Of a stretch of 32,000 nucleotides of DNA, positions 13,300 through 21,482 are shown piece after piece (positions within the stretch are counted from its first letter, which is position 1; the number at the start of each line of letters is the position of its first letter). The position numbers and the translations under genes are program-made. The notes beneath the pieces are model-generated. The model saw nothing but the letters and a program-made list of their open reading frames with translations. It was not told where the DNA came from and ran no database searches. The stretch comes from Promethearchaeota archaeon (lineage in GTDB: Archaea > Asgardarchaeota > Hermodarchaeia > Hermodarchaeales > Hermodarchaeaceae), in assembly GCA_048938295.1 (NCBI GenBank), contig JBHLMI010000015.1:1-32000 (forward strand), written 5' to 3'.

Positions 13300-14295
13300 C
13301 TAGGCAATCGCTTCTGCAGTTTCCTCTGGTTCTCTCCAACTTTTAGTTCGGAAGAAATCATAGAAGCTGGCTTCCACCACGCTTAGTTCCGTTGGGAGTT
13401 GATTTAGTTCACGAAGTGCTTTCAGCAGATTCGGTAATTGTACGTGTGGTTCATCTACAAAGACCTTAAGACTTCCTCGGCCGGATCGGATGGTGGTTTT
13501 AACAAAGGGGATATCACTGACTTGCCTGATAGTTTCTTCGGTGAGGCGGTCGAAAGTCACTTCGATGGCTTCGCCTTTCCCGGTTAGTGATCGAATTAGT
13601 TCATCCGGATGTCCTTGCAAAGAGATAGTTCCCTTCTCAAGCAATACCACTCGGTTGCAGTATTCTACTACCTCGAGGTCATGAGAAATTAGCACCATAG
13701 ATGTGCCAAAATGGTAGTTTAGCTGTTTGAGGTAGTTAAGCAGTTCATGACGCAGATGGGCATCAAGTCCTGTTGTTGGTTCATCGAGAAGAAGAAGGGG
13801 AGGTTGATGAATGAGTCCCACACAAATGGAAACACGTTTGCGCTCGCCTCCACTCAGAAACTTAACGGGTTTATGCATTAAGTCTTCATCAAAGCCTAAG
13901 ATATCAAGGATTTCACTGGCACGACGCTGGATTTCCCTACCTGTGATAGCATACATTCGTCCAAAGAAATGAGCATTTTCGAGGGCGGAAAATGGAAAGT
14001 AGAGGCTTTCATCTTCATGCTGCGGTACATATCCCGTGGCATAATGTATGGCTGCAGCATCCTTTTTTACATTGTATCCAGCAATGCGTGCAATCCCTCT
14101 GTAGGGTTTGAGCTGCGCAGTCATAACTCGCAAACAGGTCGTCTTCCCTGATCCAGATGCTCCAATAACACCAAGGATTTCTCGTTCACGGGTATAGAAG
14201 CTGATATCTCGGAGAATGTTCACTCGTCCAATTCTGACAGATGCCTGGTCAAACTCAATGATTTTGGGGGGTTTTTCCTCTGTCATTTCTGTCAT
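13300..14295 (-). CDS. ABC-2/drug-exporter-type ABC ATPase (GldA/DrrA-like) with C-terminal accessory domain
   Basis: GASGSGKT, Q-loop GYVPQ, LSGGERKR, LLLLDEPTTGLD, H-loop LISHD. The start overlaps the upstream stop (ATGA at 14292-14295). Confidence 0.9.
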   Translation of the reverse strand: MTEMTEEKPPKIIEFDQASVRIGRVNILRDISFYTREREILGVIGASGSGKTTCLRVMTAQLKPYRGIARIAGYNVKKDAAAIHYATGYVPQHEDESLYFPFSALENAHFFGRMYAITGREIQRRASEILDILGFDEDLMHKPVKFLSGGERKRVSICVGLIHQPPLLLLDEPTTGLDAHLRHELLNYLKQLNYHFGTSMVLISHDLEVVEYCNRVVLLEKGTISLQGHPDELIRSLTGKGEAIEVTFDRLTEETIRQVSDIPFVKTTIRSGRGSLKVFVDEPHVQLPNLLKALRELNQLPTELSVVEASFYDFFRTKSWREPEETAEAIA

Positions 14296-17200
14296 ACCCC
14301 CGTTTCCTTGGCTAACTCCCGTAAGCGTTTTAGCATGTTTTCCAAACGGTTCGCTGGTTCACCTGATGTAATGCGTAGTTTCTCAATGCGGTCTGTCCGT
14401 CGGTCGGTGAGTGTCCATTCCATTTCCCGAATAAGTGCTTGTGTGGTATTCAACGTGTTATCGATATTCCTGATGATTTGTTCATCAAGGGTCGGCGTGC
14501 GCATCTGCCGTTTCCTACGGTGCTGGTTCATGAAATAAGTACCAATTATTAGGATAGTGATTACAGTGACCAAGAGAATTTGGATGGTCATGATTATAAG
14601 GAAATCAGGTTCTGGAGGTGGGGAAGGTTCCTCTGGTGGGGGAAGATAGTAGAAGTATATGAACGCTGAAGTACTGCAGTATGCGCCAGGCGTAGTAAAT
14701 ACGATAATGGAAAATGTCTGGATGGTATCGATTGTTTCGTCTAGTCCTGTCCAATTTGCTAAGAGGAAAGATCCATAACGCCCTTCTTTAACTTCAAAGG
14801 CGATGAAAAAGCTCTGTGTGCGATTTGGATGTACAAAGATAACAAACATATCTAAACCTTCGACGCCTTGGCCAGTGGCATTAACTACGTCAATGACAAA
14901 ACCTGCGTCGTTGCCAATGTAAAAGGATGAATTGACTCCACCAGTAATGTGAATGGTCATGGTTACGGTTTTGCGGAACAGGTAATGAATCGTTTGGTTA
15001 ACGAATCTTAGATTATCCAAGTCGGGTAAATAGGCGTTCCCAAAAATTGCGGAACAACCTAATACGAACAATTCTTTGTCGGTTCCACCTAAATATGCGC
15101 CAAACGCAGATCCGTTCACCCACGCAAAGGTTTGAGCAGTTCCTGTTGTCGTCAATAAGGTTCCATCGATAGTAGAGATGGCGTGTACTCCACTGGTAAA
15201 GGGAGTGGAGGGGTGTAGTTCTGTTGTGTTATATGAGGTGACGGTTCCACCAACCTGGATGCTCTGATTCAAAAGCAATTGGTTCACGGCTGTTTGATTA
15301 GACGAGTCGGGGCGGTCAACGAGAATAATTGTCTTGTACCCTGATTCGATGAATTCAGAAATAGCGTTTGTCTCATTCACCGAAAACCCCTTTTCCGGAT
15401 CACAGATTACGAGGCCATCAAAGAGTTGGAGGATAGTTGAGTTAATTTCGTTAATCAGGGGGATGTCGACCAGATTCAACTGAGACGCGGCGAACAGCTC
15501 CCGTAAGCGTGAATATCCAGTCAAGAGGCTATCGCCAAGTTCTGCAAAGAGGGCAAGAAGCTCATTATAATCCAGGTTGGAGAGGTCAAGGTCTTCAAGG
15601 TCAGTAAAATCAATCCCTTGGTTATGGGTGGAGTCAAAGAGGATGACAGCCTGTGGATACGTCACATTAATGACAAAGGGGAGCGTTAGTTCCCATTCAT
15701 CGGTAGCCCGTAATACCAGGTTTCCATAATAGGGCCCAGACTCGAGGAAAGTGGGGATAAAAATCGTAATTTGGAACTGGGTGCCTATACCAACATCAGT
15801 AATTACTTCAGGAGAAATTGTGGGCGGGTTTTCCCACTGAGTGACATTTCGGTCAATGGGTGAATCGATTAGACTATTGATAAATGGTTCAATGGCTATG
15901 GCTAGCGATGGGATATGTGTGGTTGTATGTAAAGTAAGATTATACAGGGCATAATCATTGGGAAACTGAAGGGTCATCGGAGTATAAGGTACGTGACTGG
16001 GAACTAGCATTCGCATCATCGGTGGGGAACTAATGAACACATCACGGTAAACCAAATTATCTAGCGGATAGCGGTCCTGAGGAATGAAAGGGATAATTAG
16101 ATCAAAATCAATACTGGGTGAGACTACCCATCCGGCAAAATAGATTTCTGTGACTTCAGGATTCCATTCAACTGAGAGTCGTTGATACTGGAATGGTTCG
16201 AAAATCCCTAATTGGAAATAACGAGCAAACACAGCGCCACCAAGAGGTTGAGAGCGGTTGGTGAAGAATGCTGCAAGGGAATCAACACCTACGTCTCCGA
16301 TATTACACACGATTATTGACGTCAGATAAGTCGAATTAGTAATCCCAGTTCTGGCCATATCCACCTGAATCATGCAGAGGTCAGTTAAGGGAACAGCAAC
16401 TGTTGCCAATTCTGTCTGATTGATACCGTGAATAAGAGCAGTGAAGTTAAGACCGAACCCTAACGTCATTGACACATTCAATGAAGAGGTGCCAGCGGAT
16501 AGGTTCCCCAAGCGCCATTGTGATCCAAATCCGATGCTTTCGTCACTTGCATAACTTGTTGTACCGTTCAGTGTTTCATTTTGTAACTGGTCACTGACCT
16601 CATCATAAGGACCAACCTGAAAATCGCTAAACGGTGTTGAAGCATTGATTCCAATGAACTGCTCCACTCGAGTACTCTCGTTGACGGGTAACACATCACG
16701 TTGGATGTGGAAAAGTTGGGACGTATCGTTAAAATAGCCTTGCTGGGTGGAAGTGTCATTTGCACCGCTGAACAAATCAAAATTCCATAGACTGTACACA
16801 CGGATATCTGTGACCGTTTCTGAACCAATATTTACAAAGAAAAATGATATTCGAAAGGCATTGACCGATGGACCTGTGGCTATCTGCCAAGATTCAATCC
16901 GTGGTATGATGAGTACTTCATCATACGATAAAATACCTGTCGCGCGTACATATTCACCATAGGGTAAACCAGTCCAATGCATTTCCTGTTCAACATTTAG
17001 AAATGAAAACGGAGTGGGACTGCTATTTCCTACCGCTAGATAAAACATGCCAAAGAGAAGATGGAACAGTGTCATATTCGTCACAGAACTTGTCACAAGG
17101 GCACCTATTGCCGTAGAATACCCACTCATAAGCAGTGTAACATTCTCAGAGCTGGATTCACTAACTAATATTCCATAGTAGGGAAAGCCGAGGCCAATAC

Positions 17201-20354: not shown

Positions 20355-20360
20355 CTAGGT

Positions 20361-21482
20361 TTATGCTAGTGTTCGTTTCCTCCACAATACAAGAATCGCA
20401 ATGAACGTGCCACCAATAATGAAGATGAGAATTCGAAGGATTTGCTCCCAACCTGCTATCAACGGAAGACCCTTGAAAGCGGTTTCCCGAATCAAGTCCA
20501 TTCCTAAATTCATTGGTAGAAATTCGGAAATTATTCCTACATCAATGAACATACCACTCAGAATCATCATCCCCAACAGCAGAAACAGAAATCCTTGGTT
20601 TGCTTGTAAGCGCGAAGTAGAAAATGATGAGATGACAACGCCTGCTACAGCTCCAGCTAATGCCATCAGACTAACAATAATCATCAATGTAAGTAAATCT
20701 GTCTGCAAGTTCAACTGAAAACCAACAATCCAAAGAATCAACAACAACAAACCCTGGATCATCCCAATGATTGTATATGCGGCGATTTTTCCAATGACTA
20801 CTTCTACCTTACTCGTAGGCGTAAGAAGCATCCGACGAAGCGGGATATCTCCGACTATGGACTGACACGAAATCAAGGCAATGGCCATGAAAATACAAAA
20901 GACCACTAAAAACGCCCCTACCTGAATCGCTAACCTATCACCTTCAGGCACAAATTCAACTTGAGGAACTGTTAAAATATCACTACGAATCCAACCCAAC
21001 CTTTCCCGAAATATCAGGGTAGCCTGGGTCACTGCAATAAAAGCATCCCCCTGTCCCTGGAGCTGAGTATTGCTTGTATGAACATTCACCACCGTGGGGA
21101 AATTTATCGATAAAGCGTGCTCAAAACCATCAGGTATTACGATGTACGCATCAATCTCGTTGTAAAATAAAGCCGTATACGCCTCCGACTCATTCGCGAA
21201 CTCAATCACCGTTACCCCTTCAACCTCTGCTAATGTAGCTGTAAAATTCTGAGATAGATCCAAACCAGGATAAGTATCCGTTGTATCCAAGTCCACCACC
21301 CCCATTAGTAGTGGCACCGACTCAGCCTGAATATCATTCTGCTGAATCGCCAACGCAAGGGTTCCAATTGTGAGGACCGGGAGGAGGAAGACGAGGAGCA
21401 TTGCGGTGCGATCTTTGATTATAGTTTGAATCTCTTTCCGCGTAAGGGCTAGAACACGTTTGATGGACTCTAGTCTACTCAT
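20361..21482 (-). CDS. ABC-2 type transporter permease with a large extracellular loop (ABC2_membrane_3 / GldF/YbhS-like)
   Basis: 'ALTRKEIQTIIKDR..LLVFLLP', TM1, extracellular domain ('GVVDLD...EAYTALFYNEIDAYIVIPDGF'), 'LRRMLLTPTSKVEVVIGK', further TM helices, 'EFLPMNLGMDLIRE'. Confidence 0.88.
   Translation of the reverse strand: MSRLESIKRVLALTRKEIQTIIKDRTAMLLVFLLPVLTIGTLALAIQQNDIQAESVPLLMGVVDLDTTDTYPGLDLSQNFTATLAEVEGVTVIEFANESEAYTALFYNEIDAYIVIPDGFEHALSINFPTVVNVHTSNTQLQGQGDAFIAVTQATLIFRERLGWIRSDILTVPQVEFVPEGDRLAIQVGAFLVVFCIFMAIALISCQSIVGDIPLRRMLLTPTSKVEVVIGKIAAYTIIGMIQGLLLLILWIVGFQLNLQTDLLTLMIIVSLMALAGAVAGVVISSFSTSRLQANQGFLFLLLGMMILSGMFIDVGIISEFLPMNLGMDLIRETAFKGLPLIAGWEQILRILIFIIGGTFIAILVLWRKRTLA

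Follow-up and report, generated by a model that had tools for sequence, protein, structure and literature searches.

This work describes a locus of four genes for an ATP-binding cassette (ABC) transporter and a large subtilase-like protein in a Promethearchaeota archaeon (Hermodarchaeaceae; assembly GCA_048938295.1). The window, i.e. the whole 32,000-nucleotide (nt) stretch of DNA that was analysed, covers positions 1-32,000 of contig JBHLMI010000015.1. Four packed open reading frames (ORFs) of 373, 554, 1463 and 331 amino acids (aa) lie on its minus strand at 13300-21482 and are followed by an oligo-T run:

20361-21482, minus strand, ABC-2 permease, 373 aa
18690-20354, minus strand, first ABC ATPase, 554 aa, GTG start
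14292-18683, minus strand, large protein, 1463 aa, GTG start
13300-14295, minus strand, second ABC ATPase, 331 aa
13281-13286, minus strand, run of six T read from the sequence, 14 nt past the stop of the last gene

The junctions between the permease and the first ATPase and between the first ATPase and the large gene each consist of a stop codon, 6 nt and a GTG start, and the start of the second ATPase overlaps the stop of the large gene in a 4-nt ATGA. These junctions agree with the tight four-gene coupling claimed in an earlier reading made from the letters alone (hereafter the sequence-only reading). Both 6-nt gaps hinge on the GTG starts. Alternative gene calls place the start of the first ATPase (549-aa forms) at residue 6 and that of the large protein at residue 4, resulting in gaps of 21 nt and 15 nt, respectively, with the packing still tight. 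The GTG start of the large gene is favoured because a GAGGTG motif stands 9 nt upstream of it, and the operon-like packing of the four genes holds under either set of starts. The six-T run is likely an archaeal oligo-T terminator that closes the operon. No RNA runs are listed for the stretch, which is contained only in sediment-metagenome DNA runs.

The transporter and its TrmB-like domain

The permease matches the Pfam families ABC2_membrane_3 (PF12698, E 1.4e-25) and ABC2_membrane_2 (PF12679, E 2e-12), and PF01061 was matched as well. Its hydropathy profile displays six hydrophobic segments, with a first transmembrane segment, an extracytoplasmic loop of ~150 residues (about 40-187) and five more transmembrane segments. 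Orthologues with 44-86% identity occupy the same operon position. Both ATPases are matched by ABC_tran (E 8e-27 for the first and 1.5e-25 for the second) and carry canonical Walker A, Q-loop, LSGGE, Walker B (DEP in the first ATPase) and H-loop motifs. The motifs of the first ATPase are invariant across 15 orthologues, and orthologues of the second display 47-85% identity. The best NCBIfam model for both is the DrrA subfamily, matched under its cut-off. By its permease family and the intact motifs of its nucleotide-binding domains (NBDs), the transporter is of the ABC-2 (type V-like) kind, and it combines the product of a single permease gene with two different canonical ATPases. A Type VII mechanotransmission system (FtsEX, MacB, LolCDE) was rejected, since the permease is of the ABC-2 kind and gave no FtsX or MacB_PCD match at E ≤ 0.1 in the Pfam scan. 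In one relative (G007:C78:3782-4510), a TGA lies within the first ATPase gene, which may be a sequencing error or mark a recent pseudogene.

The first ATPase is composed of two parts:

19620-20354, minus strand, N-terminal extension (residues 1-245), predicted to form two Sm-like beta-barrels of the TrmB effector-domain type
18690-19619, minus strand, NBD and C-terminal domain (residues 246-554) with canonical ABC motifs

The sequence-only reading had called the N-terminal repeat novel. The repeat is real, but its predicted fold is that of the TrmB effector domain. The AlphaFold2 (AF2) model of the extension, with a predicted local distance difference test (pLDDT) score of 83.6, consists of two Sm-like barrels at residues 16-123 and 133-223. 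Compared with TrmB (3qph/2f5t), it gives Z scores of 14.1/13.9 and a root-mean-square deviation (rmsd) of 1.8-2.3 Å over 95 residues at 19-20% identity, and the next structural match after TrmB has a Z score of 8.1. Foldseek relates the extension to TrmB with E 6.5e-6. The Pfam family Regulator_TrmB (PF11495) is matched marginally, with 22.3 bits against a cut-off of 22.2, and is precomputed in most orthologues. Because fold comparison and PF11495 both point to the TrmB effector domain, the repeat belongs to a known ligand-sensing fold, and we regard the extension as a putative cytoplasmic ligand sensor. The same TrmB-like/ATPase fusion recurs in 127 archaeal ABC ATPases that form one ESM Atlas cluster; a language-model look-up of the extension gave no usable match. 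The transcription regulator TrmB of Thermococcales (2f5t, 3qph, PF11495), a sensor of sugars, has the effector-domain fold in common with the extension. Unlike that regulator, the extension has no DNA-binding helix-turn-helix and is fused to an ABC ATPase. The first ATPase was rejected as a true TrmB regulator, since the Pfam scan gave no match to the N-terminal helix-turn-helix of TrmB (PF01978).

Single barrels were also observed outside this fusion. Stand-alone ORFs of 158-166 aa in genome family f20 resemble one barrel of the extension (E about 1e-6), and the single-barrel ORFs of this family at G058:C184:3316-3615, G066:C53:10879-11175 and G073:C18:6087-6380 lie in genomes without the large protein.

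The large protein

The large protein comprises the following parts from its N-terminus to its C-terminus:

18588-18644, minus strand, N-terminal hydrophobic segment (residues 14-32) located by hydropathy and present in orthologues
17337-18164, minus strand, subtilase (Peptidase_S8) fold without nucleophile, residues 174-449
15702-17243, minus strand, beta-rich middle region with 17 sequons, residues 481-994
14967-15653, minus strand, GIFT/DUF4350 (GATase1-like) domain, about residues 1011-1239
14643-14963, minus strand, beta-sandwich after the GIFT domain, about residues 1241-1347, from the secondary structure of the model
14535-14600, minus strand, predicted transmembrane helix, about residues 1362-1383, hydropathy 2.94, preceded by a Pro-rich linker
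14295-14534, minus strand, predicted cytoplasmic tail (residues 1384-1463), with a basic stretch ahead of two predicted helices

The head is matched by Peptidase_S8 (E 1.9e-43, residues 174-449), and its best sequence match is Tk-SP (PDB 3afg, E 1.2e-46). In the alignment to Tk-SP, the position of the nucleophilic Ser is occupied by Ala423 (17415-17417) and that of the oxyanion Asn by Asp320 (17724-17726); the Asp183 and His226 positions of the triad are retained. Ala423 and Asp320 are invariant in 8 orthologues with 30-90% identity, and the catalytic Asp183 is replaced by Ser or Gly in two close orthologues (L019, L013). Across an alignment of 69 proteins, the nucleophile position is Ala in 49 and otherwise Gly, Thr, Leu, Phe or, in a few, Ser. 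Among those that share the C-terminal part, the Ser is missing from nearly all and Asp stands at the oxyanion site of most, and the long distant forms have lost the His too, with Arg, Ser, Glu, Thr or Ile in its place. All four residues (D-H-N-S) are kept in four proteins, namely L023 and L024, which match the query in the S8 part only, and P0078 and P0087, which match weakly beyond it. Since the loss is common to the relatives that carry the C-terminal part, the dead site is an old family trait and no local defect. Judged from these aligned residues, the head cannot use a classical Ser nucleophile and lacks a complete Asp-His-Ser triad with oxyanion Asn, as the sequence-only reading had proposed with its catalytically dead subtilase. 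The head also gives weak matches to the NCBIfam models of the pseudoproteases CspC and CspBA.

Residues 14-32 and 1362-1380 are the only hydrophobic segments of the large protein. The first would be either a signal peptide or an uncleaved anchor, and the second, the C-terminal transmembrane helix, is found in every full-length relative. A putative propeptide covers about residues 50-140. The ectodomain contains 35 N-x-S/T sequons versus 11.4 ± 3.0 in 2000 shuffles (maximum 22), an enrichment of ~3x that suggests N-glycosylation and is consistent with a location at the cell surface. The middle region is conserved within the large-protein family and probably consists of CARDB/NPCBM-like sandwiches; its language-model look-alikes are CARDB/NPCBM_assoc clusters (score 0.88), to be read as a lead only. 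The pattern of the 80-residue tail is conserved in alignments from Hermodarchaeota relatives to distant forms of 1540-1780 residues, and no signalling domain was recognised in it. Complex prediction of the first ATPase with the tail gave a score of 0.01, which counts neither for nor against binding.

The GIFT domain that had been called from the letters proved to be real. In the AF2 model of residues 995-1362 (pLDDT 89), it superimposes on the N-domain of IFT52 with a Z score of 24.2 (rmsd 1.9 Å over 193 residues) and on residues 617-872 of site-1 protease (S1P) with a Z score of 19.6 (rmsd 2.8 Å over 199 residues). A profile search against PDB sequences likewise returned IFT52 (E 4e-14) and S1P (E 1.3e-7). 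Taken alone, the large protein matches ABC_transp_aux and IFT52_GIFT at residues 1076-1144 below threshold (23.6 bits vs 34.7; 22 vs 27.2). Among 37 relatives, PF09822 is matched by 34 (best E 3.9e-11), PF23355 by 33 (best 1.2e-13) and PF14258 by 29. By sequence and by fold, the domain belongs to the GIFT/ABC_transp_aux/DUF4350 superfamily. Together with the beta-sandwich, it matches OST48/Wbp1 (Foldseek E 5.6e-14 and 6.9e-12, Z 20-21 over 300 residues), and the rmsd of this two-domain alignment is large because the interdomain angle differs. The best AFDB cluster is a DUF4350 protein (A0A842YA13, E 1e-28, TM 0.67), which ranks better than OST48/Wbp1. The nearest structural relatives of the module are thus DUF4350 proteins, IFT52, OST48/Wbp1 and the fourth domain of S1P; the structural and profile match lists hold no row named GldG. 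GIFT domains have been proposed to bind sugars (PMC7226087).

Further observations concern related genes. The large gene of one relative (L020, G016:C72, 1971-6314) is split by a single TAG into ORFs of 1027 and 410 aa, which may be a sequencing error or mark a recent pseudogene. In the genome of the window, contig C32 encodes two GIFT/DUF4350 proteins of 965 and 883 aa back to back (L126, G000 contig C32, 5695-8592 and 8734-11385). This pair adjoins an LVIVD-repeat protein, with no ABC genes among the neighbouring ORFs scanned. Contig C47 encodes a 324-aa protein (L037:769-1743, G000) with a signal peptide, a GIFT-like domain and a C-terminal transmembrane helix. Its OST48_N match is weak and below cut-off (E 0.008), making it a candidate stand-alone OST48-like protein, and its gene is convergent to a 229-aa ORF that by eye resembles a GT2-type glycosyltransferase.

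Distribution among Asgard archaea

The phyletic sample consisted of 201 genomes of the phylum grouped in families, of which f1 is the window's own (Hermodarchaeota). The C-terminal part of the large protein was found in 16/18 genomes of f1, 41/43 of f6, 5/5 of f7, 6/6 of f18 and 1/1 of f26, and the ATPase extension in 16/18, 42/43, 5/5, 6/6 and 1/1, respectively. The two co-occur in the same five Asgard families, and neither was found in most other families of the sample. The C-terminal 984 residues gave just 56 matches among 1.84 billion representative proteins at E ≤ 1e-3. The closest relative (90% identity) comes from a contig whose title names Candidatus Hermodarchaeota archaeon isolate FT1_005, which bears out the probable Asgard host named in the sequence-only reading. 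Close relatives stand on Hermodarchaeota records and full-length ones with ~30% identity on Thor-, Jord-, Frey- and Helarchaeota records. Loci titled Heimdallarchaeota match the large protein in its S8 part only.

The order permease, ATPase, large protein and ATPase, adjacent and co-directional, is kept in f1, f6 and f26. The large gene of Freyarchaeota (L034) is adjacent to, but divergent from, an ATPase-permease-ATPase operon, and a distant form (L033) has a run of two permease genes, an ATPase gene and the large gene, with the second ATPase divergent. Conservation of the four-gene order therefore holds for f1, f6 and f26 and fails in Freyarchaeota, in L033 and in Jordarchaeia, where the genes are unlinked. 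Since the genes stay together or co-occur across altered gene orders, the association survives rearrangement. The gene-neighbourhood comparison proposed in the sequence-only reading, for which a lost gene order was to count against the system, hence shows that the large gene and the transporter genes remain together, or at least co-occur, across Asgard classes.

Several neighbours accompany these loci. Directly downstream of the operon lies a Ras/Rab-like small GTPase gene (12658-13182, minus strand, Pfam Ras E 3.5e-50), followed by an aminotransferase gene (11283-12569), and the GTPase/aminotransferase pair is downstream in the four same-genus loci examined. A TATA-like box stands upstream of the GTPase gene, beyond the oligo-T run. 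Because these two signals stand between the pair and the operon, the pair probably belongs to a separate transcript. Divergent from the permease gene, a 304-aa ORF without Pfam match (21632-22546, plus strand) is a neighbour throughout f1 at 59-84% identity. The window encodes a second giant subtilase of 1672 aa (5533-10551, plus strand) with a signal peptide, an S8 domain, a PPC domain and a C-terminal transmembrane helix. Its S8 domain is interrupted by an insert of ~500 residues (Pfam stretch 196-710). This protein is probably active because its VVDTGID, SSGNAG and GGTSMAAP motifs are intact; a pattern search found no GHGT-type His motif in it.

Downstream of the operon in f6 and f26, genes on the same strand encode giant proteins (L016:2-5020, L035:1-5628 and L036:1-5041) that combine an FG-GAP/BBS2-like beta-propeller with bacterial TSP3 calcium-binding repeats, up to 21 in number. 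These were rejected as counterparts of the second subtilase of the window, the two being unrelated. Jordarchaeia (L013:10123-10950) and Freyarchaeota (L034:12899-13849) encode orthologous TPR/SNAP-like proteins with 41% identity. The TPR gene is convergent to the 3' end of the large gene and is followed by a gene for a protein of 1045-1094 aa. No clear orthologue of the TPR protein was found in the genome of the window, and the unrelated 304-aa divergent neighbour was rejected as its counterpart.

Proposed role and comparison with known systems

In our proposal, to which we give a probability of roughly 0.55, a metabolite-gated ABC-2 machine in a subset of Asgard archaea has the large protein as its non-catalytic subunit on the extracytoplasmic side. 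The four genes would together encode one membrane machine specific to this subset. By analogy with the presumed role of GldG beside GldA and GldF, the large protein would act as an extracytoplasmic auxiliary subunit that is tied to the permease by its transmembrane helix, its tail and a GIFT stalk. The dead subtilase head would bind or scaffold a protein or glycan partner rather than cut it, and a small molecule, possibly a sugar, on the TrmB-like domain could gate ATP turnover from inside the cell. Export of envelope components or an ATP-driven movement of the ectodomain are possible outputs. The large protein might bind the permease, and it might have the chaperone or proof-reading role suggested in the sequence-only reading.

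Several points weigh against this proposal. Binding between the large protein and the transporter is presumed, and one permease gene with two different ATPases implies no single stoichiometry. The likeness to TrmB is based on the fold and a borderline Pfam score, and a search of PDB sequences with the profile of the extension failed to return TrmB. Because kin genomes are not independent, the co-occurrence counts suggest more support than is due, and Jordarchaeia carry the large protein and the ATPase but unlinked. No cargo gene was found to be conserved, and the giant TSP3-repeat protein of f6 and f26 was not found in the genome of the window. Furthermore, three other GIFT proteins of this genome (C32, C4) have no ABC genes among the flanking ORFs scanned, so that a GIFT domain is in itself no mark of ABC association.

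The main rival, which we hold to be possible but clearly less probable, makes the large protein a co-regulated client, i.e. an abundant glycosylated protein of the envelope or S-layer type that forms no stable complex with the transporter. Its biogenesis, glycan decoration or anchoring would then need the product exported by the ABC-2 transporter, for example a lipid-linked glycan as with Wzm/Wzt-type exporters. The strong sequon enrichment and the very large ectodomain fit such a client, as do the sugar binding proposed for GIFT domains (PMC7226087), the many GIFT surface proteins without an ABC link (three in this genome), the unlinked genes of Jordarchaeia and the divergent large gene of Freyarchaeota. 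However, the position of the large gene between both ATPase genes, with a 6-nt gap on one side and the ATGA overlap on the other, is typical of subunits made in a fixed ratio. The conserved cytoplasmic tail suggests a partner in the cytoplasm, and the near one-to-one phyletic match with the family-specific ATPase domain exceeds what is expected for a mere client.

A more far-reaching version of the subunit proposal, which we regard as unlikely, is that of an undescribed archaeal surface machine in which a TrmB-gated ABC-2 motor drives or positions a dead-subtilase 'substrate trap' for surface proteins or glycans, and in which the series of head, GIFT domain, sandwich, transmembrane helix and tail shares ancestry with the S1P and OST48 modules. 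If true, the origin of components of the secretory pathway would be connected with an envelope system of Asgard archaea.

A pseudoprotease of Clostridioides, CspC, serves as a sensor of bile-acid germinants. The dead head could likewise be a receptor that senses an extracellular ligand and relays the signal via the transmembrane helix and the tail to the ATPases, with the ABC part as output, which we consider rather improbable. The weak NCBIfam matches to CspC and CspBA and the conserved tail are in line with a receptor, and the invariant Asp at the oxyanion site, with the His kept in the branch from Hermod- to Freyarchaeota, suggests a selected non-catalytic pocket. This pocket is not conserved family-wide, however, because the long distant forms lose the His and vary at the nucleophile position (Gly, Thr, Ser). 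In addition, the ATPase already has a TrmB-like cytoplasmic sensor, and the tail has no recognised signalling domain. That the head is still an enzyme, with a non-classical nucleophile or an Asp-His dyad and acting, for example, as a hydrolase of another bond type, is highly improbable: most members of the Hermod-to-Frey branch keep Asp183 and His226, with Asp320 invariant, but the close orthologues L019 and L013 have Ser or Gly for Asp183, the long forms replace the His by Arg, Ser, Glu, Thr or Ile, and no Ser, Thr or Cys is conserved at the nucleophile position, which is mostly Ala and also Gly, Leu or Phe.

We thus favour the large protein as a non-catalytic subunit of the ABC-2 machine. 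The database labels 'S8 family serine peptidase' for the large protein and 'ABC transporter ATP-binding protein' for the ATPases mask a conserved non-enzyme and a ligand-sensor domain on one ATPase. Few large surface systems are, like this gene set, common to several Asgard classes. The set also offers a testable case of a pseudo-enzyme paired with an ABC transporter. Because its membrane module is built like those of the eukaryotic IFT52, OST48 and S1P, it is a target for studies on the Asgard envelope and on the reuse of GIFT modules. Its value is limited by a layout with bacterial precedent.

In agreement with the sequence-only reading, which knew of no described system with this combination, no description of the four-gene system was found in the literature. 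The closest precedent in layout is found in Bacteroidota, where GldA, GldF and GldG are likely parts of one ABC transporter (PMC5682007). There, as in the systems with PF09822 auxiliary components that are labelled 'ABC-type uncharacterized transport system', an ABC-2 permease, an ATPase and a GIFT-type membrane protein are likewise encoded together, and the cargo of GldA/F/G is not known, as in the Asgard system. Of the GldAFG-like machine inferred earlier, this layout stands and orthology does not: the second ATPase scores 131.9 bits with the NCBIfam GldA model (TIGR03522), whose cut-off is 402.6, the 25 best of the 192 NCBIfam families matched by the first ATPase do not include GldA, and neither the permease nor the large protein is matched by a GldF or GldG model at E ≤ 0.01. 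Unlike GldA/F/G, the Asgard system has two different ATPases, one with a TrmB-like sensor, and an archaeal host. Its auxiliary protein differs from GldG in its 1463 residues, its dead subtilase head, its extra beta domains and its conserved cytoplasmic tail.

In eukaryotic S1P (MBTPS1/SKI-1; 8uw8, 9csd), as in the large protein, a GATase-like/GIFT domain comes after the subtilase, and the chain ends with a transmembrane helix and a basic tail in the cytoplasm. S1P has protease activity and no ABC partner, whereas the large protein has lost the nucleophile and the oxyanion residue, and the region from S8 to GIFT spans about 515 residues in the large protein versus roughly 150 in S1P. The large protein has no match to PF23090 (MBTPS1_4th), which is matched by 12/37 aligned relatives, including the active S8-DUF4350 protein P0078. 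The loci titled Heimdallarchaeota, with their match to the S8 part only, argue against direct ancestry. With OST48/Wbp1 (6s7t_G, 6ezn_G), a subunit of the oligosaccharyltransferase of eukaryotes, the large protein shares a GIFT domain, a beta-sandwich, a single transmembrane helix and a cytoplasmic tail. Many prokaryotic DUF4350 proteins match the module as well or better, and at the sequence level PF03345 (OST48) is matched by just 2/37 relatives (E 0.0017). Eme et al. (2023) described Asgard WBP1 homologues in Heimdallarchaeia only (PMC10307638). The large protein is unlikely to be one of them, given this restriction and the S8-only matches of the Heimdallarchaeota loci.

For the head, Tk-SP of Thermococcus kodakarensis (3afg, 9ues) is the best match, yet it is active and secreted. 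CspC and CspA of Clostridioides are spore proteins without membrane anchor, GIFT domain or ABC partner, and they provide the precedents for subtilases without catalysis that have gained a binding role.

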